Sequence record: OZ035788.1
Length of the DNA: 43,705 nt
Strand: one strand, 5' to 3'
Source: Vectrevirus T147P1
The translations under genes were made by a program, and so were the position numbers. Of the stretch, positions 30-43,556 are shown piece after piece. Within the stretch, counting starts at the first letter, position 1. Each line of letters opens with the position of its first letter. A model generated the notes under the pieces. The model made no database searches. It saw nothing but the letters and a program-made list of their open reading frames with translations, and was not told where the DNA came from.

Positions 30-329
30 GTGAGCGTACACAATAAACATGCAGCTACAGAGGATGAGGTTGGCATTCTGCATGGTGCTATTACCAAAAT
101 CTTCAATAAGAAAGCACAGGCAATACTGGACACTATAGAAGAAGACCCTGATGCAGCATTACATTTAGTGTCTGGTAAGGATATTGGTGCGATGTGTAAG
201 TGGGTTCTTGATAACGGCATTACCGCCACACCTGCTGCACAGCAGGAAGAGTCCAAGTTATCTAAGCGCCTCAAGGCTATCCGAGAGGCATCCAGTGGTA
301 AGATAATTCAATTCACTAAGGAGGATTGA
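30..329 (+). CDS. terminase small subunit (T7 gp18-like), GTG start
   Basis: 99-aa ORF immediately upstream of and overlapping the large terminase start (TGATG); position conserved in T7/SP6-like genomes; no motif-level confirmation. Confidence 0.5.
   Translation: MSVHNKHAATEDEVGILHGAITKIFNKKAQAILDTIEEDPDAALHLVSGKDIGAMCKWVLDNGITATPAAQQEESKLSKRLKAIREASSGKIIQFTKED
121..143 (+). promoter_or_regulatory. phage RNAP promoter-like site inside terminase small gene
   Basis: CAATACTGGACACTATAGAAGAA matches the window consensus from -14 onward (14/17 upstream positions). Confidence 0.45.
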
Positions 330-2227
330 TGGCTAAGGCAAGAGAATCACAAGCGGAGGCTCTTGCCAGATGGGAGATGCTACAGGAGTTACAGCAGACC
401 TTTCCTTACACAGCGGAAGGTTTGCTTCTCTTTGCAGATACAGTTATTCATAACTTAATTGCAGGCAACCCTCATCTGATTCGTATGCAGGCGGATATCT
501 TGAAGTTCCTATTTTACGGACACAAGTACCGCCTCATCGAAGCACCTCGTGGTATCGCTAAGACAACACTATCAGCAATCTATACGGTATTCCGTATTAT
601 TCATGAACCGCATAAGCGTATCATGGTTGTGTCCCAAAACGCCAAGCGAGCAGAGGAAATCGCAGGTTGGGTAGTTAAAATCTTCCGTGGCTTAGACTTT
701 CTTGAGTTTATGCTGCCGGATATCTACGCTGGGGACCGTGCATCCGTTAAGGCGTTTGAGATTCATTACACCCTACGTGGCAGTGATAAGTCTCCTTCTG
801 TATCATGTTACTCAATCGAAGCAGGTATGCAGGGTGCTCGTGCTGATATTATTCTAGCGGATGACGTAGAGTCGATGCAGAATGCTCGTACGGCAGCGGG
901 CCGTGCCTTGCTTGAGGAACTGACTAAGGAGTTTGAATCTATCAACCAGTTTGGGGATATCATTTACCTTGGTACACCTCAGAACGTAAACTCTATCTAC
1001 AACAACCTACCTGCTCGTGGTTACTCTGTTCGTATCTGGACTGCGCGTTACCCTTCAGTAGAGCAAGAGCAATGTTATGGCGACTTCCTTGCACCTATGA
1101 TTGTTCAAGATATGAAGGACAACCCAGCACTTCGCTCAGGGTACGGGTTGGATGGTAATAGTGGTGCACCTTGTGCCCCTGAAATGTATGATGATGAAGT
1201 CCTGATTGAGAAGGAAATCTCTCAGGGTGCTGCTAAGTTCCAGCTTCAGTTCATGCTTAACACTCGCATGATGGATGCTGACAGATACCCATTACGCCTG
1301 AACAATCTAATCTTCACCTCGTTTGGTACAGAGGAAGTCCCTGTGATGCCTACGTGGAGTAATGATTCCATAAACATCATTGGTGATGCACCTAAGTATG
1401 GTAACAAGCCTACGGATTTCATGTACAGACCTGTAGCTCGCCCATACGAATGGGGTGCTGTCTCCCGCAAGATTATGTATATTGACCCTGCTGGTGGTGG
1501 TAAGAACGGAGATGAGACGGGTGCAGCCATCGTATTCCTGCACGGCACATTCATTTATGTGTATCAGTGCTTTGGTGTACCTGGCGGATACCGAGAGTCG
1601 TCCCTGAATCGCATTGTGCAGGCCGCAAAGCAGGCGGGTGTTAAAGAGGTATTCATTGAGAAGAACTTTGGTCATGGCGCGTTTGAGGCGGTAATTAAGC
1701 CGTATTTTGAACGAGAGTGGCCTGTAACTCTGGAAGAGGATTACGCCACCGGACAGAAAGAGTTGCGTATCATTGAGACGCTGGAGCCGCTCATGGCAGC
1801 CCATAGGCTTATCTTCAATGCAGAGATGGTGAAGTCAGACTTTGAGTCGGTACAGCACTATCCGCTTGAACTACGCATGTCCTACAGTCTTTTCAATCAA
1901 ATGTCGAACATAACGATTGAGAAGAACAGCCTCCGGCACGATGACCGCCTAGACGCCCTGTATGGCGCTATACGGCAATTAACTTCTCAGATAGACTATG
2001 ACGAGGTTACACGGATTAATCGCCTCAGAGCGCAGGAGATGCGCGATTACATCCATGCTATGAATACACCTCATCTACGCAGGGCAATGCTATATGGAGA
2101 TTACGGTACTGAGCGAAGAGTGACCAACACTTCCGTAGCGATGCAGCAGCGAGTTTACGGGCAGAACTACCGAAATAAATCGGCAAGCAGAAATACACTT
2201 TCTGCAAGGATTTCAAGGACTTATTAA
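329..2227 (+). CDS. terminase large subunit (T7 gp19-like)
   Basis: 633-aa ORF; Walker A-like EAPRGIAKTT and Walker B-like IILADDVE; AGGAGG RBS; size and position as in T7-like phages. Confidence 0.9.
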   Translation: MAKARESQAEALARWEMLQELQQTFPYTAEGLLLFADTVIHNLIAGNPHLIRMQADILKFLFYGHKYRLIEAPRGIAKTTLSAIYTVFRIIHEPHKRIMVVSQNAKRAEEIAGWVVKIFRGLDFLEFMLPDIYAGDRASVKAFEIHYTLRGSDKSPSVSCYSIEAGMQGARADIILADDVESMQNARTAAGRALLEELTKEFESINQFGDIIYLGTPQNVNSIYNNLPARGYSVRIWTARYPSVEQEQCYGDFLAPMIVQDMKDNPALRSGYGLDGNSGAPCAPEMYDDEVLIEKEISQGAAKFQLQFMLNTRMMDADRYPLRLNNLIFTSFGTEEVPVMPTWSNDSINIIGDAPKYGNKPTDFMYRPVARPYEWGAVSRKIMYIDPAGGGKNGDETGAAIVFLHGTFIYVYQCFGVPGGYRESSLNRIVQAAKQAGVKEVFIEKNFGHGAFEAVIKPYFEREWPVTLEEDYATGQKELRIIETLEPLMAAHRLIFNAEMVKSDFESVQHYPLELRMSYSLFNQMSNITIEKNSLRHDDRLDALYGAIRQLTSQIDYDEVTRINRLRAQEMRDYIHAMNTPHLRRAMLYGDYGTERRVTNTSVAMQQRVYGQNYRNKSASRNTLSARISRTY

Positions 2228-2248
2228 TTACTGGACACTATAGAAGGA
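2226..2248 (+). promoter_or_regulatory. phage RNAP promoter
   Basis: AATTACTGGACACTATAGAAGGA; overlaps the terminase stop codon. Confidence 0.7.
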
Positions 2249-3890: not shown

Positions 3891-3913
3891 ATTTACTGGA
3901 CACTATAGAAGAG
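3891..3913 (+). promoter_or_regulatory. phage RNAP promoter upstream of tailspike 1
   Basis: ATTTACTGGACACTATAGAAGAG, exact consensus. Confidence 0.8.
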
Positions 3914-10011: not shown

Positions 10012-10125
10012 ATGGAAAAGCAATATAACTTTATCTTTTCAGACGGTGTAACCCTGAAGTGTTCCCTACGATTCGCTCAGATTCGTGAGGAAGTGCTAGG
10101 TACTACATACAAACTATTTATCTGA
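10012..10125 (+). CDS. small hypothetical protein
   Basis: 37-aa ORF directly after ocr. Confidence 0.3.
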   Translation: MEKQYNFIFSDGVTLKCSLRFAQIREEVLGTTYKLFI

Positions 10126-10201
10126 CACTATAAGAGAAGGCTTAACAAGGCGTTACTACGGTAGCGCCTGATTAAACTTTCACTGACTAGAGGTTAAAAT
10201 T

Positions 10202-10327: not shown

Positions 10328-10388
10328 ATAGCCTATAGCCTACCTATGTGGGCTATGTGATATTTACTTACACTATAAGGTGATTAAT

Positions 10389-11375: not shown

Positions 11376-14003
11376 ATGCAAGACCTACACGCTATTCAAC
11401 TTCAACTTGAAGAAGAAATGTTTAACGGCGGTATCCGTCGCTTTGAAGCGGACCAACAACGCCAGATTGCATCCGGTAATGAATCAGACACGGCATGGAA
11501 TCGCCGCTTATTGTCCGAGTTAATCGCGCCAATGGCTGAAGGTATTCAGGCTTATAAGGAAGAGTACGAAGGCAAGCGCGGTCGTGCACCACGTGCATTG
11601 GCTTTCATTAACTGCGTAGAAAATGAAGTGGCAGCGTATATCACGATGAAGATCGTAATGGATATGCTTAACACTGATGTAACCTTGCAAGCTATCGCTA
11701 TGAATGTAGCTGACCGCATCGAAGACCAAGTGCGCTTCAGTAAACTAGAAGGCCATGCAGCTAAATATTTTGAGAAGGTCAAGAAGTCACTTAAGGCAAG
11801 TAAGACTAAATCATATCGCCATGCGCACAATGTAGCGGTCGTGGCTGAGAAGTCAGTAGCTGACCGTGACGCTGATTTCTCTCGCTGGGAAGCGTGGCCT
11901 AAAGATACCTTGCTACAAATTGGTATGACCTTGCTAGAAATACTGGAAAATAGTGTATTCTTCAACGGGCAGCCTGTTTTCATCCGCACCTTGCGTACTA
12001 ATGGCGGCAAACACGGTGTTTACTACTTACAGACTAGTGAACACGTTGGCGAGTGGATAACCGCCTTCAAAGAGCACGTAGCGCAACTAAGCCCTGCATA
12101 TGCACCTTGCGTTATTCCTCCGCGTCCGTGGGTTTCACCTTTCAACGGTGGGTTTCATACTGAGAAAGTAGCAAGCCGTATCCGCCTTGTTAAAGGCAAC
12201 CGTGAGCACGTCCGTAAGTTAACTAAAAAGCAAATGCCAGCGGTCTATAAGGCTGTTAACGCCTTACAAGCTACTAAGTGGCAGGTTAACAAGGAAGTAT
12301 TGCAGGTAGTAGAAGATGTTATTCGTCTAGACCTCGGTTATGGTGTACCTTCCTTTAAGCCGCTCATTGACCGCGAGAACAAACCAGCTAACCCTGTTCC
12401 TCTTGAGTTCCAACACCTGAGAGGCCGTGAACTGAAAGAGATGCTTACGCCAGAACAGTGGCAAGCTTTTATAAACTGGAAAGGAGAATGTACCAAGCTG
12501 TATACCGCTGAAACTAAGCGCGGAAGCAAGTCGGCGGCGACCGTTCGCATGGTTGGACAGGCCCGTAAATACAGCCAGTTTGACGCAATTTATTTTGTGT
12601 ATGCACTGGACAGCCGTTCGCGCGTTTATGCGCAATCTAGCACGCTCTCGCCGCAATCAAACGACTTAGGCAAGGCATTGCTCCGTTTTACCGAAGGGCA
12701 GCGTCTTGATAGCGCTGAGGCGCTTAAGTGGTTTTTGGTGAACGGGGCGAATAATTGGGGTTGGGATAAGAAAACTTTTGACGTGCGCACCGCTAACGTG
12801 CTGGATGGCGAATTTCAAGACATGTGCCGCGATATTGCAGCCGACCCGCTGACCTTCACTCAATGGGTAAATGCTGATTCCCCTTACGGCTTCCTTGCAT
12901 GGTGCTTTGAATATGCGCGTTATCTGGATGCACTGGATGAAGGCACGCAAGACCAATTCATGACGCACCTACCCGTCCATCAAGACGGTAGTTGCTCTGG
13001 TATCCAGCACTATAGCGCGATGTTACGCGATGAAGTAGGTGCGAAAGCAGTAAACCTTAAGCCTTCTGACTCCCCTCAAGATATTTATGGCGCGGTTGCG
13101 CAGGTTGTTATCCAGAAGAATTACGCCTACATGAATGCAGACGATGCAGAGACTTTCACATCTGGAAGCGTCACACTTACAGGTGCAGAACTGCGTAGCA
13201 TGGCTAGTGCGTGGGATATGATAGGAATCACTCGCGGATTGACCAAAAAGCCCGTAATGACACTACCTTATGGCAGCACACGTCTAACCTGCCGTGAATC
13301 AGTGATTGATTATATCGTTGATTTGGAAGAAAAAGAGGCCCAACGAGCTATTGCGGAAGGACGTACCGCCAATCCTGTACATCCTTTTGATAATGACCGT
13401 AAGGACAGCCTGACACCTAGCGCAGCTTATAACTATATGACAGCTTTAATCTGGCCTTCTATTTCGGAAGTGGTTAAAGCTCCTATAGTGGCAATGAAAA
13501 TGATTCGTCAGCTTGCCCGTTTCGCAGCTAAAAGGAATGAAGGCCTAGAGTATACCTTGCCTACTGGCTTCATCTTGCAACAAAAGATAATGGCTACTGA
13601 TATGCTCCGCGTATCCACTTGCCTGATGGGGGAAATCAAGATGAGTCTACAGATTGAAACGGACGTAGTGGATGAAACGGCTATGATGGGCGCTGCTGCT
13701 CCTAACTTTGTGCATGGTCATGATGCCAGTCACCTTATCTTAACAGTCTGCGACCTTGTTGATAAAGGGATTACATCTATCGCAGTCATTCATGATTCTT
13801 TCGGTACTCACGCAGGCCGTACAGCCGATCTACGTGATAGTCTAAGGGCAGAAATGGTGAAGATGTATCAAGGCCGTAATGCCCTGCAAAGCCTGTTAGA
13901 TGAGCATGAAGAACGCTGGTTAGTAGACACCGGAATCCAAGTGCCAGAGCAAGGAGAGTTTGACCTTAACGAAATCTTAGTATCTGACTATTGCTTCGCA
14001 TAA
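11376..14003 (+). CDS. single-subunit DNA-dependent RNA polymerase (SP6/T7 family)
   Basis: 875 aa; N-terminus [32 protein letters not shown]... and internal [25 protein letters not shown] / [11 protein letters not shown] / IHDSFGTHA match SP6 RNAP as recalled; AGGAG RBS. Confidence 0.97.
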
Positions 14004-14011
14004 TATTAATA

Positions 14012-14040
14012 GGCCATTCCTTCGGGAGTGGCCTTTTCTT
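14012..14040 (+). terminator. intrinsic terminator after the RNAP gene (TE-like)
   Basis: GGCCATTCC-TTCG-GGAGTGGCC hairpin (9 bp, UUCG loop) followed by TTTTCTTTT. Confidence 0.6.
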
Positions 14041-14076
14041 TTACCTACTACCGGTAACATTTCATTAACATAAAGT

Positions 14077-14092
14077 GTCTCACATGTGAGAC
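14077..14092. repeat. 16-bp palindrome GTCTCACATGTGAGAC (copy 1)
   Basis: Perfect palindrome immediately upstream of the promoter at 14095. Confidence 0.8.
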
Positions 14093-14094
14093 TT

Positions 14095-14117
14095 ATTTAC
14101 CGGACACTATAGGATAG
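14095..14117 (+). promoter_or_regulatory. phage RNAP promoter
   Basis: ATTTACCGGACACTATAGGATAG. Confidence 0.7.
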
Positions 14118-14158
14118 CCGTCGGAGACGGGAAAGAAGGGAAGATAAAGGATATAAAA

Positions 14159-14215
14159 GGAAGTAATAGGTATTAAAGGTTATATAGGTTTACCTAGGAA
14201 TACCTATTACCTTCC
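14159..14215. repeat. AT-rich element with 16-bp inverted repeat arms (copy B); candidate replication origin core
   Basis: GGAAGTAATAGGTATT ... AATACCTATTACCTTCC arms flank AGGTTATATAGGT; lies between two phage promoters just downstream of the RNAP gene, the layout of the T7 primary origin. Confidence 0.45.
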
Positions 14216-14258
14216 TCCTTCCTCTTATTACTACTTAGAGGAAGGGCAGACCTAAGTT

Positions 14259-14279: not shown

Positions 14280-14302
14280 ATTTACCGGACAGTATAGATA
14301 AG
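14280..14302 (+). promoter_or_regulatory. phage RNAP promoter (variant, G at -5)
   Basis: ATTTACCGGACAGTATAGATAAG. Confidence 0.5.
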
Positions 14303-14681: not shown

Positions 14682-16669
14682 TGGCTATAATCAATAACAT
14701 TCAATGCCCTGCTTGTGCTAAGAACGGGCATGATAAATCCTCTAATCATCTCATGATATTTGATGATGGTGCTGGCTACTGTAATCGTGGACACTTTCAT
14801 GATAATGGTAGACCTTACTACCACAAGCCGGAAGGTGGCATCGAGATAACCGAGTTACCTATTACTGGCAATATCAAATATACACCTTCTCAATTCAAAG
14901 AAATGGAGAAGGAAGGGAAGATAAGCGACCCTAAATTACGTGCCATCGCACTAGGTGGTATGCGTATGAAAGACCGTTGGGAGGTCATGAATGAGCAAGA
15001 AAGGGCAGACCAAGAAGCAGAGTGGAAACTTGATGTTGAATGGTTCCTCACGCTTAAGCGTAAGAACCTTGTTTCCCGACACATTCGCGGCGACATTTGC
15101 GCATTGTATGATGTACGTGTCGGACACGATGAAGAGGGTAGAGTCTCGCGGCATTACTATCCACGCTTCGAGAAAGGTGAGCTAGTAGGAGCTAAGTGTC
15201 GCACATTACCTAAAGACTTTAAGTTTGGTCATTTAGGTAAACTCTTTGGTATGCAAGACCTTTTCGGGATGAATACTTTGTCTCACGTGTTAGACAAGGG
15301 AAGACGAAAGGACTGCTTGCTCATTGTCGGCGGCGAACTGGATGCACTAGCAGCGCAGCAGATGCTCCTTGATTCTGCCAAGGGTACTAAGTGGGAGGGT
15401 CAGCCATACCATGTATGGTCTGTCAACAAAGGCGAGTCTTGCCTTGAAGAGATAGTGCAGAACCGTGAGCATATCGCCCAATTCAAGAAGATTATATGGG
15501 GTTTTGATGGAGATGAGGTAGGGCAGAAGCAGAATCAGCAAGCGGCTCGCCTGTTTCCTGGCAAATCCTATATCCTTGAATACCCCTCTGGTTGCAAAGA
15601 TGCTAACAAGGCATTGATGGCTGGCAAGGCTAAAGAATTTGTAGATGCATGGTTTAATGCCAAGTCATCTGATGAAGTCTTTGGTAGCCAGATTAAATCT
15701 ATTGCATCTCAAAGGGATAAGCTCAAGGCTGCACGTCCAGAGCAAGGACTATCATGGCCTTGGCCTAAGCTGAACAAGGTAACGCTAGGTATTCGTAAGA
15801 ATCAGCTTATCATTGTAGGTGCAGGGTCTGGTGTAGGTAAGACTGAGTTCCTTCGTGAAGTAGTTAAGCACCTCATTGAAGAACACGGTGAATCTGTAGG
15901 CATCATTTCTACAGAAGACCCGATGGTCAAGGTGTCCCGTGCTTTTATCGGCAAGTGGATTGATAAGCGTATTGAGTTACCGCCAACCAACGACCCGAAA
16001 GAAGATGGATACCGTGAGGTGTTCGACTACACCGAGGAAGAAGCTAACGCCGCCATTGATTATGTAGCTGATACAGGTAAGCTGTTTGTGGCTGACCTAG
16101 AGGGTGACTATTCGATGGAAAAGGTAGAGCAAACTTGCCTAGAGTTTGAGGCTATGGGCATTTCTAATATCATCATTGATAACTTAACGGGGATTAAATT
16201 AGATGAGCGTGCTTTTGGTGGGAAGGTTGGTGCACTTGATGAATGCGTCAAGCGGATTGGTACTATCAAAGACCGACACCCGGTTACTATATTCCTTGTA
16301 TCACACCTTACACGTCCTCCGGCAAACCGTACCCAACACGAAGAAGGTGGCGAAGTTATCCTTTCTGACTTCCGAGGCTCAGGCGCTATCGGATTCTGGG
16401 CATCTTACGCCTTGGGGATTGAGCGTAATACAAGAGCTGAAACGCTTGACGAAAGGACTACCACGTACATCTCATGTGTCAAAGACCGCGACCAAGGTAT
16501 CTGGACTGGAACCAAGGTCATGCTTAAGGGTGACATTCAAACCGGACGTTTAATGGAACCACAAGCCCGTACTAAGTCATTTGATACAGGTGAAGCAAGG
16601 CAACAAGAAGTGCCGGATTTACCGGACACTATAGAAGAGACAACCTTTGACGATGAACAGGAGTTTTAA
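14681..16669 (+). CDS. DNA primase/helicase (T7 gp4-like)
   Basis: 662 aa; N-terminal Cys4 zinc ribbon (CPACAKNGHDKSSNH...CNRGHFH), Walker A GAGSGVGKT of the DnaB-like helicase domain, acidic C-terminus ending in F. Confidence 0.95.
   Translation: MAIINNIQCPACAKNGHDKSSNHLMIFDDGAGYCNRGHFHDNGRPYYHKPEGGIEITELPITGNIKYTPSQFKEMEKEGKISDPKLRAIALGGMRMKDRWEVMNEQERADQEAEWKLDVEWFLTLKRKNLVSRHIRGDICALYDVRVGHDEEGRVSRHYYPRFEKGELVGAKCRTLPKDFKFGHLGKLFGMQDLFGMNTLSHVLDKGRRKDCLLIVGGELDALAAQQMLLDSAKGTKWEGQPYHVWSVNKGESCLEEIVQNREHIAQFKKIIWGFDGDEVGQKQNQQAARLFPGKSYILEYPSGCKDANKALMAGKAKEFVDAWFNAKSSDEVFGSQIKSIASQRDKLKAARPEQGLSWPWPKLNKVTLGIRKNQLIIVGAGSGVGKTEFLREVVKHLIEEHGESVGIISTEDPMVKVSRAFIGKWIDKRIELPPTNDPKEDGYREVFDYTEEEANAAIDYVADTGKLFVADLEGDYSMEKVEQTCLEFEAMGISNIIIDNLTGIKLDERAFGGKVGALDECVKRIGTIKDRHPVTIFLVSHLTRPPANRTQHEEGGEVILSDFRGSGAIGFWASYALGIERNTRAETLDERTTTYISCVKDRDQGIWTGTKVMLKGDIQTGRLMEPQARTKSFDTGEARQQEVPDLPDTIEETTFDDEQEF
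16617..16639 (+). promoter_or_regulatory. phage RNAP promoter inside the 3' end of the primase/helicase gene
   Basis: ATTTACCGGACACTATAGAAGAG. Confidence 0.7.
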
Positions 16670-16896: not shown

Positions 16897-17625
16897 TTGA
16901 TTATGTATAAATTAGTATTGAATGTAGGTGATTATGTTCGTAACATCAATGAAGCCTCACGTCGTTATCGTTGCCGTGGTGTAGTGGCTCGTGTAAGTGA
17001 GAACATGTATCATGTAGAATATGAGGATGGTATTAAGGCTTCTTACCACAAGAAAACAGCACATAAATATCTTGAAAAGATTGTAGAGATAAACAATCAA
17101 TGTAAGTGCATACATGATGAGGTTTGCGATAAGTGTGCACGTCAGGCAGTTAAAGCCTTTACCTTTGCTCAACGTTATGGTTCTATGTATGGCGCTGGTA
17201 ACAAGACCCTTGCAGAAGCAGCTTGGAAGACATTACAGTTTGAGCGTTCAAATGGACGACGCACCACAATTAAGAAAGAGCGCCGCAATGTAATCACTGG
17301 TAAGACTCAAAGTGAAATGATTAAGAAATGTGGCACTGCACTAGGTGTTACGCAGTTTAACACTCGTGCTCTTGGTAAATCCACAGGACAAGCTATGGTA
17401 AAGATTGGCGAAGCCATGATGCATCCAAATGTACCTGTACGAATCAGGGATGTTGACCATGCAATCACAGAACACAGTACGCAACGACGTGTAATTAATA
17501 AGCATTTTGCCGACACTATAGAAGGTATTATTCGTAAGCAAGGGTTGAAAGGTCTTCACATCTTGAATGATGAAGAGTTACTGTACCTCCCTATTGTTAC
17601 TGAAGAAACCTACGTGAATATCTAA
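16897..17625 (+). CDS. hypothetical protein
   Basis: 242-aa ORF with GGAGA RBS between helicase and DNA polymerase. Confidence 0.7.
   Translation: MIMYKLVLNVGDYVRNINEASRRYRCRGVVARVSENMYHVEYEDGIKASYHKKTAHKYLEKIVEINNQCKCIHDEVCDKCARQAVKAFTFAQRYGSMYGAGNKTLAEAAWKTLQFERSNGRRTTIKKERRNVITGKTQSEMIKKCGTALGVTQFNTRALGKSTGQAMVKIGEAMMHPNVPVRIRDVDHAITEHSTQRRVINKHFADTIEGIIRKQGLKGLHILNDEELLYLPIVTEETYVNI
17504..17526 (+). promoter_or_regulatory. phage RNAP promoter-like site inside a coding sequence
   Basis: ATTTTGCCGACACTATAGAAGGT; core GACACTATAGAAG conserved. Confidence 0.5.
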
Positions 17626-20989: not shown

Positions 20990-21250
20990 ATGATTAAATC
21001 ACAGAAGTATTTCTCAACTAAAGATCGTAAGGTAGGTTTTGAAATCAAAGTTTGGGAAGACGGACACATTACTATTATTTACGAAGGTAAAGGTTCTAAT
21101 GGTATGATGCTACGTAGATGCCGTACATTCACAAAGAAAGAATGTATGCATATGTCTGAATGCATGTTTCTTTACATCATTGCTGATGATATTAAAGGTA
21201 TGAAGCTAATTGTATCTCTACCTTTAATACCTAAATCTTTGTTAGGTTGA
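20990..21250 (+). CDS. hypothetical protein
   Basis: 86-aa ORF with GGAGAG RBS. Confidence 0.55.
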   Translation: MIKSQKYFSTKDRKVGFEIKVWEDGHITIIYEGKGSNGMMLRRCRTFTKKECMHMSECMFLYIIADDIKGMKLIVSLPLIPKSLLG

Positions 21251-21272
21251 TTTATTGGACACTATAGAAGGA
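21250..21272 (+). promoter_or_regulatory. phage RNAP promoter
   Basis: ATTTATTGGACACTATAGAAGGA. Confidence 0.7.
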
Positions 21273-21336: not shown

Positions 21337-21714
21337 ATGTCTATGGTAACTACTCTGGTATTTGTAGCTCAATACTTTCGTGGTCTGGCTAATAAGTTCA
21401 AGTCCAAGGCTATCAAAGCTATTGAGTCTCGCATCGAGGCAGTACAGGCAGAGCAAGTTAAAGTTGAAGAACATCGTAGTTCTCAAATGATTGACTGCCA
21501 TAACCGCTACTATGCATCTCGTGATGACCTTAATGCACGCCAAGTCAAAGAGGTTGAAGAGATGCTGGCACGTCACCAGCAAGAGCGCGACAGTCTGAAA
21601 GCTGAATTTGAAGAGAACAAGGCATCCATCTCCATTGCACATCAAGCCGCATCTGACAGCCTGAAGAAAGAGATTGTTATGCTGGAGATTGAGTTAGACA
21701 ATCTTACCAAATAA
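21337..21714 (+). CDS. hypothetical coiled-coil protein with N-terminal hydrophobic segment
   Basis: 125 aa; AGGAG RBS; flanked by two phage promoters. Confidence 0.6.
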   Translation: MSMVTTLVFVAQYFRGLANKFKSKAIKAIESRIEAVQAEQVKVEEHRSSQMIDCHNRYYASRDDLNARQVKEVEEMLARHQQERDSLKAEFEENKASISIAHQAASDSLKKEIVMLEIELDNLTK

Positions 21715-21735
21715 TTACTGGACACTATAGAACAA
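21713..21735 (+). promoter_or_regulatory. phage RNAP promoter
   Basis: AATTACTGGACACTATAGAACAA. Confidence 0.65.
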
Positions 21736-22843: not shown

Positions 22844-22858
22844 AAATCGGTGTCCGGT

Positions 22859-22881
22859 ATTTACTGGACACTATAGAAGAG
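22859..22881 (+). promoter_or_regulatory. phage RNAP promoter
   Basis: ATTTACTGGACACTATAGAAGAG, exact consensus. Confidence 0.8.
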
Positions 22882-24622: not shown

Positions 24623-25017
24623 AATCATCTGAGGTAGCAGCTTATAAGAGGGAATTGCTAGAGAAGCAAGGATGGCAGTGCCCCCTATGTGGCGGCAGTC
24701 TCAAGGCTGTTACTCCTATAAACCGTGTACTTGACCATGACCATGAGACAGGATTCTGCCGTGCTGTTGTATGCCGAGGCTGCAATGGTGCAGAAGGAAA
24801 GATTAAGGGTGTTATCTCTGGTTACGGTAAGGCTGGTAACAACCGTTACTTCCAGCTTCAATGGTTAGAGCGACTATATGGATACTGGAAGTTACATAGT
24901 ACGCCTCAGACAGATAAGTTATATCACAAACATCAAACGGAGGCAGAGAAGCGCGAGGCTAAGAACCGTAAGGCACGCCTTGCTTATGCAAGAAAGAAGG
25001 AGGTTAAAGTTGGGTAA
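24607..25017 (+). CDS. endonuclease VII-like Holliday junction resolvase
   Basis: 136 aa; CPLCGG...LDHDHETGFCRAVVCRGCNGAEGKIKG matches the zinc-binding His-Cys box of T4 endonuclease VII as recalled. Confidence 0.8.
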   Translation: MVSKLKSSEVAAYKRELLEKQGWQCPLCGGSLKAVTPINRVLDHDHETGFCRAVVCRGCNGAEGKIKGVISGYGKAGNNRYFQLQWLERLYGYWKLHSTPQTDKLYHKHQTEAEKREAKNRKARLAYARKKEVKVG

Positions 25018-26017
25018 GCTTCGCAGCTTGTACAAAGACTCCGAGGTACTTGATGCAATCGAGCAAGCTACCGACGAGAAAGGTAATGTTAATTACAATG
25101 AGATGGCACGTGTATTATCGTGTCACCCTGTGGGTAAGAAGATTACCCGCCAGTTGGCTCGATACTGGCATGGTCAATTCAAGAAGACCAAGAAGAATGG
25201 TGATTATTACCAGACCCTTCTGCAAGAAGATAAGCGTATCAAAGAAGAGCGTAAGCTCAGGACTCCTGACCGCTACGAGGATTTGGCTATTGTACCATTG
25301 CCTGACTCGCCTCATCGAAGTGTACTGGTAATCCCTGATACTCATGCACCTTATGAGCATCCAGATACCTTAGAGTTCCTTGCAGCCGTAGCAGCACGTT
25401 ACCGTCCAGACACAGTGGTACACCTAGGAGATGAGGCAGACAAACATGCCCTGTCATTCCACGATTCGGACCCAAATCTGGATAGTGCTGGCATGGAGTT
25501 AGAGAAGGCTCGTATCTTCATGCACAAATTGCACAAGATGTTCCCTGTTATGCGCCTGTGTCACTCTAACCATGGCTCTATGCACTTCCGTAAGGCAAGC
25601 GCCAAAGGCATCCCTGTGCAATACCTGCGCACCTACCGTGAAGTCTTCTTCCCGCAGGGAGGTGGCGACCAGTGGGACTGGCAGCATACTCATGTTCTTG
25701 AGCTACCTAATGGTGAACAGGTGGCGTTCAAGCATCAACCTGCTGGCTCTGTTCTAGCAGATGCAGCGCATGAGCGCATGAACCTAGTGTGTGGTCACTT
25801 GCATGGTAAGATGTCTGTGGAGTACGCACGTAATACACATGAACAGTATTGGGCTGTGCAAGGTGGCTGCTTAATTGATGAGTCATCCCGTGCATTTGCC
25901 TATGGGCGTGAGTCTAAATACAAGCCAGCATTAGGTTGTGTGGTTATTCTGGAGGGTGTACCTCATATTGTCCCGATGCAAACCAATAGCGACAACCGTT
26001 GGATTGGCAAGATTTAG
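25010..26017 (+). CDS. calcineurin-like metallophosphoesterase, TTG start
   Basis: Motifs DTH, GDEAD, SNHG in order; AAGGAGG 6 nt upstream of TTG (ORF opens at 24878 in the overlap with the previous gene). Confidence 0.75.
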   Translation: MGKLRSLYKDSEVLDAIEQATDEKGNVNYNEMARVLSCHPVGKKITRQLARYWHGQFKKTKKNGDYYQTLLQEDKRIKEERKLRTPDRYEDLAIVPLPDSPHRSVLVIPDTHAPYEHPDTLEFLAAVAARYRPDTVVHLGDEADKHALSFHDSDPNLDSAGMELEKARIFMHKLHKMFPVMRLCHSNHGSMHFRKASAKGIPVQYLRTYREVFFPQGGGDQWDWQHTHVLELPNGEQVAFKHQPAGSVLADAAHERMNLVCGHLHGKMSVEYARNTHEQYWAVQGGCLIDESSRAFAYGRESKYKPALGCVVILEGVPHIVPMQTNSDNRWIGKI

Positions 26018-26034
26018 TTGACACTATAGAACAA
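26012..26034 (+). promoter_or_regulatory. phage RNAP promoter (SP6-like G at -12)
   Basis: ATTTAGTTGACACTATAGAACAA; overlaps the phosphoesterase stop. Confidence 0.65.
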
Positions 26035-26117
26035 AGGGCTAGGTAAGACTTTATCGGCTGGCGTATCCAAATGATATTGCACTAGCCCTTGATTGTATAG
26101 TGAATGGAGGATTCAAT

Positions 26118-26621
26118 ATGTCACACTATGAATGTAAGAAGTGTCATAAGCGTTATGATTACTGTACTTGTGGTCAAGAGAAAACATCTTTTAAAGTTGG
26201 AGACAAGGTATTTCGTAATGAAAAATATCCGAGTCCTTGGAATCAATACTGCAAAGAAGCTGGTATTGACCCTGATAGCCCTGTAACCATAGATGATATT
26301 GATGGCATTAACTTGTGCTTTCGTGAGGTGAGGGGTACAGGTTGGGATTCCAAAAGATTCAAACTTGCATCTGATAAGTTAGACAACAATATGGTAACTC
26401 AGCCTAAGCACTACGAGTTCTTTGATGGCGTAGAAGCAATTACTATCATCGCCCGTAGTATGACCGAGAAGCAATTCGCGGGGTATTGCATGGGTAATGC
26501 TTTGAAGTATCGTCTGCGTGCAGGTAAGAAGTTCAATACTGAAGAAGACCTGAAGAAAGCAGACTACTACAAAGAGTTATTCCAGAAGCATCGTCACGAA
26601 TGTATTGATGAGGATATTTGA
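26118..26621 (+). CDS. hypothetical protein with N-terminal Cys cluster
   Basis: 167 aa from the ATG after GGAGG (ORF opens with GTG at 26100); CKKCHKRYDYCTC; C-terminal NALKYRLRAGKKFNTEEDLKKADYY. Confidence 0.65.
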   Translation: MSHYECKKCHKRYDYCTCGQEKTSFKVGDKVFRNEKYPSPWNQYCKEAGIDPDSPVTIDDIDGINLCFREVRGTGWDSKRFKLASDKLDNNMVTQPKHYEFFDGVEAITIIARSMTEKQFAGYCMGNALKYRLRAGKKFNTEEDLKKADYYKELFQKHRHECIDEDI

Positions 26622-26622
26622 T

Positions 26623-27570
26623 ATGAATATCTTTGAGTTCCTAGGTCTTCCAGAAGACCACCGCAATCACCCATTCATGTTGGTGAAGCATCGCGGTGAA
26701 GTTCCTGAGAAGAAATTAACTTTTCCATGTTATGCACAAGTGAAACGAGATGGAATATTCAGTGCTGTTGTGGTGCGCAATGATGGTGCTGTTGCCATCT
26801 TCGGTCGTACTGGTAAGAAGCTCGCAAATGTTGAATCCTTGGAAAAGACATTTAGTGTATTTCCTGTCGGGTTGTATCTTGGTGAGTTGCAATCTATGGC
26901 TGTTGATGTTTATCTTGAAGCCCTGTCAGGAGTGGTAAACCCTAATCGTACAGAGCCACTTGACTTCATAGGCCAGCAGATTAAAGACAACCTGTATATC
27001 GACTTCTTCGATATGTTAACTATTAAGGCATTCCATGATGGATTCACTGATGTTTCTTATCTCAAACGTTACGATGCTTTACATCGTCGCATCGGCGCTC
27101 ATCTTAGCGGGTACAACGCTATCCTTCCTATTACTCCTTGCCATAATGAGCGAGAAGTTGAAGCGTTTGCGCAAGAGCAGATAGACGCAGGCCGAGAAGG
27201 TGCTGTGTTTAAACTGGACTGTGATTATGAAGCAGGACATAAAGGTTATCGTCAGACTAAAGAAATCCGTAAGGTAACTTATGACCTTACTTGTATTGGC
27301 TTTGAAGAAGGTAAAGGCAAATACAAAGGTAAGGTAGCTAACCTCATTTTCAAATGGAAAGGAGGCAAGACAATCAAAGCTATGTTAGGTAAGGGGTGGA
27401 CTCATGCAGATGCAGAACAGATGTTCCACGACATTAAACATGGTGGACGATTGAATGTCATTGGTAAAATCTTTGAAGTCAAAGGTCTTCAGGATTCAAG
27501 CAAGGGCAACATTCGTCTGCCCAAAGCGGGAGAATTAAGACATGACAAAGATGAACCAGATTTCTTTTGA
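26623..27570 (+). CDS. ATP-dependent DNA ligase
   Basis: 315 aa; nucleotidyltransferase motifs KRDG (motif I, lysine adenylation site), LGELQ, EGAVFK, and a KxK motif. Confidence 0.82.
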   Translation: MNIFEFLGLPEDHRNHPFMLVKHRGEVPEKKLTFPCYAQVKRDGIFSAVVVRNDGAVAIFGRTGKKLANVESLEKTFSVFPVGLYLGELQSMAVDVYLEALSGVVNPNRTEPLDFIGQQIKDNLYIDFFDMLTIKAFHDGFTDVSYLKRYDALHRRIGAHLSGYNAILPITPCHNEREVEAFAQEQIDAGREGAVFKLDCDYEAGHKGYRQTKEIRKVTYDLTCIGFEEGKGKYKGKVANLIFKWKGGKTIKAMLGKGWTHADAEQMFHDIKHGGRLNVIGKIFEVKGLQDSSKGNIRLPKAGELRHDKDEPDFF

Positions 27571-27757
27571 TAGCATGAAGGCAACTCGTGCAGTTGAGGT
27601 AGCAGAAGCTATCTTTGAAACTTTATCCTGTGGCATGGAAGTGCCATATACTTTACTTGCTGATGCAGAAGAACTTGGTCTTTCTGTAGAAGCTATCCAA
27701 GAGAAGGTTGACGAATTATATGGTACAGACGAAGAAGAAACCGACGATTTCATTTGA
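27542..27757 (+). CDS. small acidic hypothetical protein
   Basis: 71 aa; GGGAG RBS; C-terminus TDEEETDDFI. Confidence 0.5.
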   Translation: MTKMNQISFDSMKATRAVEVAEAIFETLSCGMEVPYTLLADAEELGLSVEAIQEKVDELYGTDEEETDDFI

Positions 27758-27886
27758 AGGAATGGAGATGCTTGAGATGATTCTCAAGCCTTCTTCTCCG
27801 AAGGTGACTAAGACTCATGAAGAGTTAATCGTTGATGAAGTGAAGCGTTACATCATGGATTGTGTCAGAGCACAACTGGTGGTTCA

Positions 27887-28348
27887 ATGATACGTCCAGC
27901 TTCCTTCCTAGATATCCCTGAGATTATAAACCTTGGGAATAAATATGTGGAAGAGGAAGTCAAGGTAGTGGCCCATCACTCAGCCTCATGGAATGCAGAA
28001 CAAAGTGCACATAACCTTTGTGCATCTCTTAGTAGAGAAGATTTATTCCTATGGGTGGCTGTAGATGAAGGGAAGATTGTAGGGTTCCTGTGGGCTGGCT
28101 ATCACGAGTTAGCCCCTTGGACACCTGTAAGGGTTGCCTCTGACATTCTCTTTTACATTATACCAGAGAAGCGAGGGACACTACTAGGTATGCGTCTTAT
28201 CAAGGCTCTTAAACAATGGGCTAATGAAAATGAATGCTCTGAGGTTCGCCTGTCTATCGCCTCTGGTATTAATGAAGAACGTGTCGGACGTATGTATAAG
28301 CGACTTGGCTTTGAACCGTTTGGCACTGTGTACAACCTGAAGTTCTAA
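27887..28348 (+). CDS. GNAT-family N-acetyltransferase
   Basis: 153 aa; acetyl-CoA-binding-like core RGTLLGMRLIKALKQWA and C-terminal RLGFEPFG (ORF opens at 27860). Confidence 0.65.
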   Translation: MIRPASFLDIPEIINLGNKYVEEEVKVVAHHSASWNAEQSAHNLCASLSREDLFLWVAVDEGKIVGFLWAGYHELAPWTPVRVASDILFYIIPEKRGTLLGMRLIKALKQWANENECSEVRLSIASGINEERVGRMYKRLGFEPFGTVYNLKF

Positions 28349-28357
28349 GGAGATAAC

Positions 28358-28567
28358 ATGGGTGTTGTAAAGAAAGCATTTAAGGCTATCGGTCTTGCTC
28401 AAGATGCACCACGTATTGAAGCCAAAGTCCCAGCACAGCAGCTTGAGCGTAAGCCTGAGACTGAAGCTGAAGATATTCAAATTGGTGCAGGTGGTGATGA
28501 TGCGACTGCATCTGCAAAAGGTAAGCGCGGCCTTGTCCGTCCGGTAGCTTCTAGCTTGAAGGTGTAA
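28358..28567 (+). CDS. small virion-associated protein (gp6.7-like by position and composition)
   Basis: 69 aa; AAGGAG RBS; immediately upstream of the portal gene. Confidence 0.5.
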   Translation: MGVVKKAFKAIGLAQDAPRIEAKVPAQQLERKPETEAEDIQIGAGGDDATASAKGKRGLVRPVASSLKV

Positions 28568-28568
28568 T

Positions 28569-30119
28569 ATGAAACAGAGCACAGATTTGGAGTATGGAGG
28601 TAAGCGGTCTAAGATACCTAAGCTATGGGAGAAGTTCTCCACTAAACGTAGCTCTTTCCTTGATAGGGCGAAGCATTACTCCAAATTAACCTTGCCCTAT
28701 CTGATGAATGACAAAGGTGATAACGAGACTTCGCAGAATGGATGGCAAGGTGTAGGTGCTCAGGCAACTAATCATCTAGCCAACAAGCTAGCGCAAGTAC
28801 TATTTCCTGCACAGCGTTCCTTCTTCCGTGTAGACTTAACTGCACAAGGTGAGAAGGTTCTTAATCAGCGTGGCCTGAAGAAGACAGAGCTAGCTACCAT
28901 CTTCGCTCAAGTGGAAACACGGGCAATGAAAGAGTTAGAGCAACGTCAATTCCGGCCTGCTGTAGTGGAAGCATTCAAGCATCTTATTGTTGCTGGTAGC
29001 TGTATGCTATACAAGCCGAGCAAAGGTGCAATCAGTGCTATCCCAATGCATCACTATGTAGTTAACCGTGATACCAATGGCGACCTGTTAGACATTATCT
29101 TACTGCAAGAGAAAGCCTTACGCACCTTTGACCCAGCTACACGTGCTGTAGTAGAGGTTGGCCTGAGAGGTAAGAAGTGCAAGGAGGATGACAGCGTTAA
29201 GCTGTACACACATGCTAAGTATCTTGGTGATGGATTTTGGGAACTCAAGCAATCTGCTGATGATATCCCTGTGGGTAAGGTGAGTAAAATCAAATCAGAA
29301 AAGCTACCTTTCATCCCATTAACTTGGAAGCGAAGCTATGGTGAGGATTGGGGTCGCCCTCTTGCAGAGGATTACTCCGGTGATTTATTCGTTATCCAAT
29401 TCTTATCTGAAGCGGTTGCCCGTGGTGCTGCGCTGATGGCAGATATCAAGTACCTGATTCGTCCGGGTGCTCAAACTGATGTTGACCACTTTGTTAACTC
29501 TGGCACTGGTGAGGTTGTCACTGGTGTAGAAGAAGACATCCATATTGTACAGTTAGGTAAGTACGCAGACCTAACACCTATTAGCGCGGTTCTAGAGGTA
29601 TACACTCGCCGTATCGGTGTTGTCTTCATGATGGAGACAATGACACGCCGTGACGCCGAACGTGTTACTGCTGTAGAAATCCAGCGAGATGCGTTAGAGA
29701 TTGAGCAGAACATGGGTGGTGTATACTCCCTCTTTGCTACTACTATGCAATCGCCAGTAGCGATGTGGGGTCTGCTGGAGGCAGGGGAGTCCTTCACTAG
29801 TGACTTAGTGGACCCTGTGATTATCACAGGTATTGAAGCTTTAGGACGCATGGCTGAGTTGGATAAACTGGCTAACTTTGCTCAGTATATGTCACTGCCA
29901 TTACAATGGCCTGAGCCTGTCCTAGCTGCTGTGAAATGGCCTGACTATATGGATTGGGTGCGTGGTCAAATCTCTGCTGAACTGCCGTTCCTTAAATCGG
30001 CTGAAGAGATGGCACAAGAACAGGAAGCACAGATGCAAGCACAGCAAGCACAGATGCTTGAAGAAGGTGTGGCTAAGGCCGTGCCGGGTGTAATTCAACA
30101 AGAACTTAAGGAGGCGTAA
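28569..30119 (+). CDS. portal (head-tail connector) protein, T7 gp8-like
   Basis: 516 aa; WQGVGAQATNHLANKLAQVLFP aligns with the T7 gp8 N-terminal region as recalled; followed by scaffold and capsid. Confidence 0.9.
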   Translation: MKQSTDLEYGGKRSKIPKLWEKFSTKRSSFLDRAKHYSKLTLPYLMNDKGDNETSQNGWQGVGAQATNHLANKLAQVLFPAQRSFFRVDLTAQGEKVLNQRGLKKTELATIFAQVETRAMKELEQRQFRPAVVEAFKHLIVAGSCMLYKPSKGAISAIPMHHYVVNRDTNGDLLDIILLQEKALRTFDPATRAVVEVGLRGKKCKEDDSVKLYTHAKYLGDGFWELKQSADDIPVGKVSKIKSEKLPFIPLTWKRSYGEDWGRPLAEDYSGDLFVIQFLSEAVARGAALMADIKYLIRPGAQTDVDHFVNSGTGEVVTGVEEDIHIVQLGKYADLTPISAVLEVYTRRIGVVFMMETMTRRDAERVTAVEIQRDALEIEQNMGGVYSLFATTMQSPVAMWGLLEAGESFTSDLVDPVIITGIEALGRMAELDKLANFAQYMSLPLQWPEPVLAAVKWPDYMDWVRGQISAELPFLKSAEEMAQEQEAQMQAQQAQMLEEGVAKAVPGVIQQELKEA

Positions 30120-31039
30120 TGTCTTTCTCATTTACTGAACCGTCAACCACTCACCCTACTGCTGAAGAAGGTCCGGTAGAAACCAAGGAGGTAACAACTG
30201 ATGCTGCTACTACTGGTGCTCCTGCTGACGCTGGCACTGCTGTACAAGATGACAATGCTGGTGCACAACCCACTGAAGACACCGGAGGAGAAGCTTCTGG
30301 ACAGCCTTCAGAAAAAGGAGACAATGGCGGAGAGAATGGTGAACCTAAGCCAGATGATACCGCGACCGACACTGAGGAAGTGCAATACTTCTTCGGAGAA
30401 CATGAAGTAACAGTAGACATCCCACAGGATGTAACTGACAGCCTTAAAGAGAAAGGCATTGATGCCAAGCAGGTTGCCAAGGAACTCTATTCCAAAGGTG
30501 GCAAGTTTGAATTGTCAGATGCAACCAAGCAGAAATTGTATGATGCTTTTGGCAAGTTTGCGGTAGATGCTTACCTGTCAGGTCTAAAGGCTCAAAATGA
30601 AGCCTTCTTCCTGAAAGAAGCCAACGCAGCTAAAGAGTTGGAAGCAGCTAACACACAACGCTTCTCTGATGTTTCTAAGGAAATTGGTGGCGAAGAAGGT
30701 TGGTCCCGTCTTGAGGAGTGGGCGCTTGAAACGCTATCAGATGACGAACTCACGGCATTCAATGCGGTGATGGAGTCTGGCAACCAATACCTTCAGCAAT
30801 ATGCTGTGCGTGAACTAGAAAGCCGCCGGAAAGCTGCACAGGGTGATGACAAGCCAAACTTGATTGAACCCTCTGCACCTGCTGCTGCGTCTGAAGACAA
30901 CGGCCCACTATCGCGTGAGCAGTACCTGCGTGAGATGATGACCCTTAGCTCTCGTTTCGGTACAGACAAGAAAGCTGCTGCTGAGTATCAGGCTAAACTG
31001 GATGCTCGCCGTCGTGCTGGGATGGCTCGCGGACTCTAA
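30119..31039 (+). CDS. capsid scaffolding protein (gp9-like)
   Basis: 306 aa, acidic and helical; between portal and major capsid; TAATG coupling. Confidence 0.8.
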   Translation: MSFSFTEPSTTHPTAEEGPVETKEVTTDAATTGAPADAGTAVQDDNAGAQPTEDTGGEASGQPSEKGDNGGENGEPKPDDTATDTEEVQYFFGEHEVTVDIPQDVTDSLKEKGIDAKQVAKELYSKGGKFELSDATKQKLYDAFGKFAVDAYLSGLKAQNEAFFLKEANAAKELEAANTQRFSDVSKEIGGEEGWSRLEEWALETLSDDELTAFNAVMESGNQYLQQYAVRELESRRKAAQGDDKPNLIEPSAPAAASEDNGPLSREQYLREMMTLSSRFGTDKKAAAEYQAKLDARRRAGMARGL

Positions 31040-31044
31040 TCAGT

Positions 31045-31067
31045 ATTTACTGGACACTATAGAAGGG
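31045..31067 (+). promoter_or_regulatory. phage RNAP promoter for the capsid gene
   Basis: ATTTACTGGACACTATAGAAGGG. Confidence 0.8.
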
Positions 31068-31115
31068 AGAAATGTCTCCCTAAAATATCACTTTGATTTA
31101 TAAGGAGGTTTATTA

Positions 31116-32324: not shown

Positions 32325-32332
32325 TACCTATG

Positions 32333-32366
32333 CCCTATCTACCTTGCGTAGGTAGGGTTATTTTTG
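32333..32366 (+). terminator. terminator after the capsid gene (T-phi-like)
   Basis: CCCTATCTA-CCTTGCG-TAGGTAGGG hairpin followed by TTATTTTTG. Confidence 0.6.
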
Positions 32367-32378
32367 TTAGGAGGATTC

Positions 32379-39212: not shown

Positions 39213-39229
39213 TACCTAACTCAAGGCTT

Positions 39230-39245
39230 GTCTCACATGTGAGAC
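39230..39245. repeat. 16-bp palindrome GTCTCACATGTGAGAC (copy 6)
   Basis: Extended inverted repeat GGCTTGTCTCACA / TGTGAGACAGGTC between two internal virion protein genes. Confidence 0.8.
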
Positions 39246-39276
39246 AGGTCTTTATGATAGGCACTATGGAGGAATT

Positions 39277-43547: not shown

Positions 43548-43556
43548 GGAGGTGGG

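Follow-up and report, generated by a model that had tools for sequence, protein, structure and literature searches.

The RNA polymerase and promoters of a Vectrevirus genome belong to the K1-5/K1E type, and the promoters depart from those of SP6 mainly at position -11

Results

RNA polymerase gene and its surroundings

The stretch of DNA that we analyzed (the window; 43,705 nucleotides, record OZ035788.1) is the genome of a K1-5/K1E-like coliphage of the SP6 supergroup, circularly permuted relative to the K1-5 record AY370674. Its membership of the genus Vectrevirus (K1-5/K1E-like phages, Molineuxvirinae) is established by genome-wide nucleotide identity and collinearity, as bases 1-25000 had 96.9% identity to GenBank Vectrevirus T147P1 with 95% of bases covered and bases 25001-43705 had 96.6% identity with 100% covered. 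In 75 records, the match covered 80% or more of the polymerase region.

The gene for the phage single-subunit RNA polymerase lies at 11376..14003 on the plus strand, encodes 875 amino acids and is the orthologue of K1-5 and K1E gp7 and of SP6 gp8. Its product matched the Pfam families RNA_pol (9.9e-90) and RPOL_N (1.1e-31), passed the curated thresholds of PF00940 (301.9 bits, cut-off 22) and PF14700 (110.9 bits, cut-off 30.1), and had a full-length phmmer match to T7 RNAP structures (E=8e-112, residues 7-875). In the alignment, the catalytic residues D537, K624, Y632, H806 and D807 correspond to T7 D537, K631, Y639, H811 and D812. By these sequence features the product is a T7-family single-subunit RNA polymerase with predicted promoter-specific activity, and promoter-specific transcription has been published for two of its relatives, the K1E polymerase (PMC6412113) and a Vectrevirus-type metagenomic polymerase (PMC13029058). 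Vectrevirus T147P9 in GenBank has a polymerase with exactly the same amino-acid sequence (100% identity). The first-pass annotation of this DNA had described the protein as very close to SP6 RNAP; while it does have 85.7% identity to that enzyme, it is much closer to gp7 of K1-5 (99.3%) and K1E (98.6%). Six amino-acid substitutions separate it from K1-5 gp7, none of them inside the specificity loop, and twelve separate it from K1E gp7, mainly in the C-terminal 50 residues, which does not imply a functional difference.

The polymerase feature had been drawn to 14117; however, the open reading frame ends at 14003, and 14004-14117 contains a hairpin, a palindrome and a promoter. The hairpin is GC-rich and terminator-like (14011-14034; 10-bp stem with six GC pairs), lies directly 3' of the polymerase stop codon on the plus strand and is followed by a T-run, TTTTCTTTT. 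Together the two (14011..14043) are a probable early terminator. A 16-bp palindrome is situated at 14077-14092, between the polymerase ORF and the promoter at 14095.

Promoters of the window

Scanning with the core GACACTATAG at up to one mismatch identified 13 sites in the window, all on the plus strand and built on GACACTATA(G/A); promoter sites are given here by the coordinate of their -17 base. The 21-mer ATTTACYGGACACTATAGAAG had 12 matches within three mismatches, likewise all on the plus strand, four of them exact (3891, 16617, 22859 and 31045), and there were no matches in any of 100 shuffles. The count of 13 thus agrees with that made originally, although what the sites have in common is a consensus, ATTTAC(T/C)GGACACTATAGAAG, and not one sequence. 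The core (-9 to +1) is exact in 11 sites, the departures being G at -5 in site 14280 and A at +1 in site 10116. No promoter features are annotated in the GenBank records of K1-5, K1E and SP6, and the promoters of those phages were re-derived from the records by sequence scan. Each of the 13 window sites is matched by a near-identical site in the corresponding place of both the K1-5 (L001) and the K1E (L003) genome.

The promoter CAATACTGGACACTATAGAAG at 121..141 has orthologues in K1-5 (35488) and K1E (37182), and no syntenic counterpart in SP6, whereas AATTACTGGACACTATAGAAG at 2226..2246 has orthologues in all three (K1-5 37593, K1E 40033, SP6 37773). The exact consensus ATTTACTGGACACTATAGAAG occurs three times: upstream of the tail-spike genes (3891..3911; SP6 39910, with the K1-5 counterpart at 39265 upstream of gene 46), at 22859..22879 (K1-5 14590, K1E 15932, SP6 14286), and upstream of the major capsid gene (31045..31065; SP6 22413, with the K1-5 counterpart at 22852 between gene 30 and capsid gene 31). 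The fourth exact consensus site, given as ATTTACCGGACACTATAGAAG, is at 16617..16637 (K1-5 8320, K1E 9342, SP6 8411). Upstream of the genes preceding the polymerase is the promoter-like site ATTTATCTGACACTATAAGAG (10116..10136), in which A replaces G at +1; the site is conserved, that A included, in K1-5 (2014), K1E (2779) and SP6 (2104). The polymerase gene is followed by a tandem pair, of which ATTTACCGGACACTATAGGAT (14095..14115; predicted +1 G14112; K1-5 6020, K1E 6824, SP6 6118) comes first and ATTTACCGGACAGTATAGATA (14280..14300; predicted +1 G14297; K1-5 6204, K1E 7008, SP6 6287) second, upstream of a gene starting at 14328.

Further along are ATTTTGCCGACACTATAGAAG at 17504..17524 (K1-5 9010, K1E 10190, SP6 9112), ATTTATTGGACACTATAGAAG at 21250..21270 (K1-5 12580, K1E 13925, SP6 12542), AATTACTGGACACTATAGAAC at 21713..21733 (SP6 13005) and ATTTAGTTGACACTATAGAAC at 26012..26032, which is identical in K1-5 (17755) and K1E (19097). 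Site 26012 (ATTTAGTTG) has G at -12 and T at -11 and -10, and its SP6 counterpart at 17428 has AGT at these three positions. It had been singled out as the one site keeping an SP6-like G at -12, which it does, but so does site 17504 (ATTTTGCCG), where C follows at both -11 and -10.

Comparison with SP6 promoters

The register in which the window consensus had been set against the SP6 promoter ATTTAGGTGACACTATAG was correct, with differences at -12, -11 and -10. Among 12 syntenic promoter pairs, the window and SP6 differ at -11 in every pair, at -12 in 10 and at -10 in seven, whereas each other position differs in at most four. The pair 21713/SP6 13005 has differences at only those three positions between -17 and +5. 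SP6 and the window share the element ATTTA at -17 to -13. Both -12 (C, T or G in the window; G, A, C or T in SP6) and -10 (G, T or C; T or G) are variable, whereas -11 is T or C at all 13 window sites. As none has G there (0/13), the window sites fall outside the SP6 promoter class (ATTTAGGTGACACTATAGAAG) on that position, while sharing its core GACACTATAG and ATTTA. The window promoters belong instead to the K1-5/K1E class, which they match in consensus, in position and in a cognate loop with Ser747. The main distinction between the two classes is at -11, where SP6-class promoters have G and those of the K1-5/K1E class a pyrimidine; the shifts at -12 (C in place of G) and -10 (G in place of T) are less strict.

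Specificity loop of the polymerase

The specificity loop (residues 738-766) is encoded at 13587..13673 on the plus strand and aligns with T7 residues 739-770. The loop is invariant across the window, K1-5, K1E and nine IMG/VR Vectrevirus loci, the sole exception being I760V in locus L020. Six differences from SP6 fall inside it, and only one of the four positions that contact bases in T7 is affected: the T7 N748 equivalent, which is Arg746 in SP6 and Ser747 in the window (codon 13614..13616, plus strand). Both enzymes have R, K and S at the positions aligned with T7 R746, R756 and Q758, respectively, and promoter positions -9 to +1 are likewise unchanged in consensus. The remaining loop differences are E742D, D753E, V760I, I764V and A768T, the last deduced by elimination without a per-residue listing, and these could contribute to the change in specificity between SP6 and the window. 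The counterpart of the AT-rich recognition loop of T7 comprises residues 65-73 (EGKRGRAPR; codons 11568..11594, plus strand) and has a single conservative difference from SP6, K68R. The original expectation that the promoter differences lie where the specificity loop should read was borne out. The loop also differs at the position that discriminates T7 from T3, and the promoter difference from SP6 is both real and mechanistically sensible.

Covariation of loop residue and promoter

When sites were pooled, -11 at promoters of Ser-type polymerases was C in 59, T in 41 and G in two (102 sites from 12 sources, the window and 11 loci), and at promoters of SP6-like Arg-type polymerases it was G in 36 and A in one (37 sites, four loci). 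This covariation largely reflects two clades and, for the most part, one or two evolutionary events. C at both -12 and -11 also occurs in Erwinia phage VyarbaL (loop LRVSS), which represents an independent lineage of the Ser type, and for a directed-evolution T7 variant with 748S among other changes the listed promoter reads CCTGA from -12 to -8 (PMC11880802, Table 2). A general Molineuxvirinae code, in which Arg would specify G and Ser a pyrimidine at -11, was considered and is ruled out by distant Arg-type relatives, namely Klebsiella phage VLCpiA2a with T at -11 and a Proteus phage with A there. Because of these relatives, the residue at the N748 equivalent does not on its own constitute a code.

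Discussion

In this study, we found that the window encodes a polymerase and a set of promoters that are already known, having been present in published genomes since 2004-2006 and both used and tested in the laboratory. The first-pass annotation had raised the possibility of a naturally orthogonal or partly cross-reactive pair. The pair is not new, as K1-5 (AY370674) and K1E (AM084415) have the matching promoter at each site and a specificity loop of the same sequence, an observation that the annotation itself had named as refuting its proposal. Of its two suggestions, it was partial cross-reactivity that agreed with published activities, as discussed below. In our assessment, the window very probably has a K1-5/K1E-type Vectrevirus polymerase that serves about 13 promoters. 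The two would be a form of the SP6 pair that co-evolved towards relaxed specificity, without becoming orthogonal to it.

If the programme resembles that of T7 and SP6, the phage RNAP would be made early in infection by host RNA polymerase, and the phage enzyme would then transcribe the middle and late genes from the approximately 13 promoters, all on one strand, with the consensus ATTTAC(T/C)GGACACTATA-G(+1)AAG. Asn748 of T7 RNAP contacts -11 and -10 of its promoter. Based on the alignment to T7, the Arg to Ser change at this loop position is the candidate protein change matching the shift at -11: Arg746 of SP6 would read G(-11), and the short side chain of Ser747 would lose that contact. Such a loss would result in a K1-5-type enzyme that prefers or tolerates pyrimidines at -11 while still accepting SP6-type promoters.

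Evidence on cross-reactivity comes from the Vectrevirus-type polymerase No. 2049, which in vitro had 3.5% of the activity of the T7 reference on an SP6 promoter, ~2% on its own consensus TATTTACTGGACACTATAGAAGAA and 0.18% on a Proteus-phage-type promoter, values to be read with the caveat that absolute activities were low and that there were also slight +5/+6 differences among the tested promoters (PMC13029058, 2026). Its promoter list and its stated >84% identity to SP6 suggest that No. 2049 has the Vectrevirus-type loop (PMC13029058). Since this enzyme was about equally active on the SP6 promoter and on its own consensus, we consider the pair to be cross-reactive and not orthogonal. Were the K1-5-type enzyme and SP6 polymerase to reject each other's promoters, as those of T7 and T3 do, one would expect just such a change as is seen at -11, which is complete in 12 of 12 syntenic promoters and coupled to a change at the N748 equivalent by the same logic as in T7/T3 discrimination. 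The lack of a pyrimidine at -11 in any of the 37 SP6-like sites is also consistent with SP6 polymerase requiring G. Nonetheless, a functionally orthogonal pair is very unlikely, as the activity of a Vectrevirus-type polymerase on the SP6 promoter was no lower than on its own consensus, contradicting orthogonality in its full form for such enzymes (PMC13029058). Moreover, SP6-type GGT promoters occur occasionally in Vectrevirus genomes, including two in that of No. 2049 (PMC13029058) and one, ATTTAGGTG, in Ser-type locus L010, and the pair would be already published and in use even given one-way orthogonality. Discrimination in one direction, SP6 polymerase rejecting K1-5-type promoters, is possible because of those same 0/37 sites. 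Tentatively, specificity may be asymmetric, with SP6 polymerase being strict for G(-11) and the Ser747 enzyme using both promoter types, although we regard this as somewhat less likely than not.

It could also be argued that -12 to -10 are weakly read positions which drifted neutrally and were fixed by shared ancestry, unrelated to the Arg/Ser change, since -12 and -10 vary within both the SP6 genome and the window and a K1-5-type enzyme functions on both promoter types. That explanation is very improbable, as -11 is near-invariant in each clade and opposite between them (G in 36/37 versus pyrimidine in 100/102), the flanking promoter positions are unchanged, and independent drift would not have changed 12 of 12 dispersed sites. 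In addition, Ser together with C at -11 was found again in the distant Erwinia phage lineage.

Beyond confirmation, the significance of the pair is small. It does represent a clean natural case of polymerase-promoter co-evolution, with -11 switched in 12 syntenic promoters alongside one Arg to Ser change, and the Ser form has signs of permissiveness, not of orthogonality. Potentially, if the asymmetric reading is true, a single Arg/Ser exchange would decide whether -11 is recognized strictly or permissively within the SP6 supergroup. Comparison of the window with SP6 could guide a small mutagenesis of -11 reading by SP6-group enzymes.

Among the closest known systems is Escherichia phage K1-5, whose genome was reportedly described by Scholl et al. 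in 2004 (J Mol Biol 335:1151). It has all 13 promoter sites at the same relative positions, most of them identical over -17 to +5, along with the identical specificity loop and the highly similar gp7; a few single-base promoter differences occur, for example at window sites 10116 (ATTTATCT versus ATTTAGCT in K1-5) and 21250 (ATTTATTG versus ATTTACTG). Escherichia phage K1E likewise shares the promoter set and the loop, and its polymerase and promoter drive the C3P3-G1/G2 expression system (PMC6412113, PMC10908868). Polymerases and promoters of this type have been systematically mined (PMC11880802), and their biotechnological use comprises C3P3 and enzyme screens for in vitro transcription. Salmonella phage SP6 resembles the window in genome organization, in 12 syntenic promoters and in the -17 to -13 and -9 to +1 elements, and differs from it in having G versus T/C at -11 in all 12 pairs and Arg versus Ser at the N748 equivalent. 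A 2025 NAR study placed "K1E" and "SP6" in separate polymerase-promoter clusters, neither of which follows the T7-derived recognition rules (PMC11880802). T7 and T3 offer a parallel: their polymerases are also closely related, positions -10 to -12 distinguish their promoters, and the two loops diverge at that same position of the alignment, T7 N748 and T3 D749 discriminating between the two promoters according to the T7 RNAP-promoter complex 1CEZ and mutagenesis (summarized in PMC11880802). However, T7 and T3 are mutually exclusive, whereas for SP6 and the window the data indicate that the Ser-type enzyme is cross-active on the SP6 promoter.

Results

The ORF at 11376-14003 (875 aa) encodes a T7-family single-subunit RNA polymerase, with Pfam matches to RNA_pol (301.9 bits) and RPOL_N (110.9 bits), a full-length match to T7 RNAP structures (E = 8e-112) and all five equivalents of the T7 catalytic residues D537, K631, Y639, H811 and D812 kept in the alignment. 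The first-pass annotation had assigned the interval 11376-14117 to the polymerase; the ORF does lie there, but it ends at 14003, and the remainder consists of a terminator-like hairpin (14011-14034) with a T-run after it, a palindrome of 16 bp (14077-14092) and a + strand promoter, 14095, with its predicted +1 at G14112.

The sequence comes from a coliphage of the K1-5/K1E kind (genus Vectrevirus). The DNA of the polymerase region has 99.5% identity to Vectrevirus T147P9, with at least 80% of the region covered by 75 phage records, and the polymerase protein is 100, 99.3, 98.6 and 85.7% identical to those of T147P9, K1-5 (gp7), K1E (gp7) and SP6, respectively. Across the whole window, 95-100% of the length aligns with Vectrevirus T147P1 at 96-97% identity. 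Position 35488 of K1-5 is the equivalent of window base 121, and since the assembly starts internally relative to the K1-5 record, the genome is circularly permuted with respect to it; this start point is common to the GenBank OZ0357xx Vectrevirus records, and the terminal repeat has presumably collapsed in the window assembly.

A window scan with the core GACACTATAG, allowing up to one mismatch, found 13 + strand promoter sites, whose -17 bases are at 121, 2226, 3891, 10116, 14095, 14280, 16617, 17504, 21250, 21713, 22859, 26012 and 31045. The 21-mer ATTTACYGGACACTATAGAAG had 12 matches in the window at up to three mismatches, all on the + strand and four of them exact, and none in any of 100 dinucleotide-preserving shuffles. 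The thirteen sites, consensus and promoter register proposed from the sequence were all correct, as was the G at -12 of site 26012, a feature that site 17504 shares.

K1-5 (AY370674), K1E (AM084415) and SP6 (NC_004831) were scanned with the same core. All 13 window sites recur at matching relative positions in both K1-5 and K1E, most of them unchanged over -17 to +5. The polymerases of the window, K1-5 and K1E share one and the same 29-residue specificity loop, the stretch that aligns with T7 residues 739-770. Nine IMG/VR Vectrevirus loci have the same loop, save for one I-to-V change in the locus L020. The window promoters are K1-5/K1E promoters, and those published genomes already combine them with this loop, which is what the first-pass annotation had named as refuting its proposal.

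Comparison with SP6, where 12 of the 13 window promoters have syntenic partners, located the differences more narrowly. Position -11 differs in all 12 pairs (G in SP6, T or C in the window), -12 in 10 (mostly G to C) and -10 in seven (mostly T to G), whereas any other position differs in at most four pairs, in a scattered manner; several pairs, such as 21713 and SP6 13005, are identical over -17 to +5 save for -12 to -10. In T7 RNAP, promoter bases are contacted by R746, N748, R756 and Q758. In both T7 and T3, the residue at the N748 position reads -11/-10, and it sets T7 versus T3 discrimination (PMC11880802). SP6 and the window are alike at three of these four contact positions (R, K and S), the sole difference being at the N748 equivalent (Arg746 in SP6, Ser747 in the window; window codon 13614-13616). 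When promoters were pooled by this residue, the 102 sites from 12 Ser-type Vectrevirus sources (the window plus 11 loci) had C at -11 in 59, T in 41 and G in two, while the 37 sites from four Arg-type SP6-like sources had G in 36 and A in one, so that a pyrimidine occurred at none of the 37 sites among the SP6-like loci examined. The syntenic pairs and pooled counts together identify -11 as the discriminating position; -12 and -10 are variable inside both groups.

Several other features were observed near the promoters. The promoter-like site at 10116-10136, GACACTATAAGAG, lies 5' of the genes that come ahead of the polymerase and is conserved in K1-5 (2014), K1E (2779) and SP6 (2104), with A rather than G at +1 in all four phages. 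The A at +1 suggests that this promoter is deliberately weak or initiates differently, and it may be involved in feedback on polymerase expression. A weaker match at 10361-10382, TATTTACTTACACTATAAGGTG, whose -9 base is T and whose +1 base is A, directly precedes the GTG start of an ORF at 10380 and may be a chance occurrence or a degenerate promoter. The perfect 16-bp palindrome GTCTCACATGTGAGAC has eight copies in the window at up to two mismatches (8639, 14077, 14259, 15280, 16848, 18031, 22828 and 39230), compared to 0.02 expected, with copies 2, 5 and 15 bp upstream of promoters 14095, 14280 and 22859. Exact copies were found in K1-5, K1E and the other Vectrevirus loci, and none in the SP6-like loci examined; the element may form a small hairpin in RNA, with a 6-bp stem and a CAUG loop, or may be bound by a dimeric protein. 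Between the tandem promoters 3' of the polymerase gene, the interval 14116-14258 is rich in purines and in A+T (GGAAAGAAGGGAAGATAAAGGATATAAAAGG...), and AGGAAGTAATAGGTATT ... AATACCTATTACCTTCCT within it form an imperfect inverted repeat. In T7, the primary replication origin comprises phi1.1A/phi1.1B and an AT-rich region, and by analogy of position this interval may be a candidate origin.

Discussion

The most likely basis for the difference at -11 is that SP6 Arg746 reads the G, that its replacement by the short side chain of Ser would lose this contact, and that promoters of the K1-5 lineage would then have moved to a pyrimidine. Evidence for an Arg/Ser reading of -11 beyond both clades comes from VyarbaL, an Erwinia phage of an independent lineage (60% identity), which has Ser at the N748 equivalent (loop LRVSS) and C at both -12 and -11, and from a directed-evolution T7 variant that carries 748S, among other changes, for a promoter with CCTGA at -12 to -8 (PMC11880802). 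Arg-type Klebsiella and Proteus phages with T or A at -11, however, are evidence against a simple Arg/Ser code, as are the five further loop residues that differ between the window and SP6 and the statement that K1E- and SP6-type enzymes fall outside the rules drawn from other T7-like polymerases (PMC11880802). Among the Molineuxvirinae loci L068, L069, L070, L014 and L015, whose polymerases have 60-84% identity to that of the window, the -12 to -1 consensus diverges stepwise (Proteus phage, AAGA-CCACTATA; Klebsiella phage, GTGG-CGAGTATA; Erwinia phage, CCAC-CCAGTATA; L014, TGTT-GCACTATA; L015, GGGG-CTACTATA), and this series represents a ready-made set for studies of specificity evolution in the SP6 supergroup.

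The first-pass annotation had considered the pair either orthogonal to SP6 or partly cross-reactive, and the latter option fits the data on the metagenomic polymerase No. 2049. This enzyme, from a genome with the window's promoter series, e.g., TATTTACCGGACACTATAGG, CATTTTGCCGACACTATAG and TATTTACTGGACACTATAG, was purified in a 2026 study that amounts in essence to the transcription assay suggested in the first-pass annotation (PMC13029058). Its activity was 3.5% of the T7 reference on the SP6 promoter TATTTAGGTGACACTATAGAAGAG, about 2% on its own consensus TATTTACTGGACACTATAGAAGAA and 0.18% on a Proteus-phage-type promoter, in test promoters that also differ slightly downstream of +4 (PMC13029058). 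Two natural GGT (SP6-type) promoters are present in the No. 2049 genome (PMC13029058), and an SP6-type ATTTAGGTG site occurs in a Ser-type locus, the IMG/VR Vectrevirus contig L010 (position 2709). Based on these activities and sites, the Ser-type enzyme is cross-reactive on SP6 promoters, with No. 2049 assigned to this type from its promoter list. The presence of ATTTAGGTG in Ser-type genomes and the lack of -11 pyrimidines in the SP6-like loci hint at an asymmetric tolerance, in which, judging from the promoter sequences, SP6 polymerase might strictly require G at -11. Possibly, modules have been exchanged between the two genera.

The window's polymerase/promoter pair is already known; the K1-5 genome dates from 2004 and that of K1E from 2006. 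A 2025 survey of polymerase-promoter pairs mined from the genomes of 23,854 phages treats "K1E" and "SP6" as clusters of their own, delimited by residues 748, 756 and 758 (T7 numbering) together with promoter bases -12 to -8 (PMC11880802), and the K1E polymerase and K1E promoter drive the C3P3-G1 and C3P3-G2 expression systems (PMC6412113, PMC10908868).
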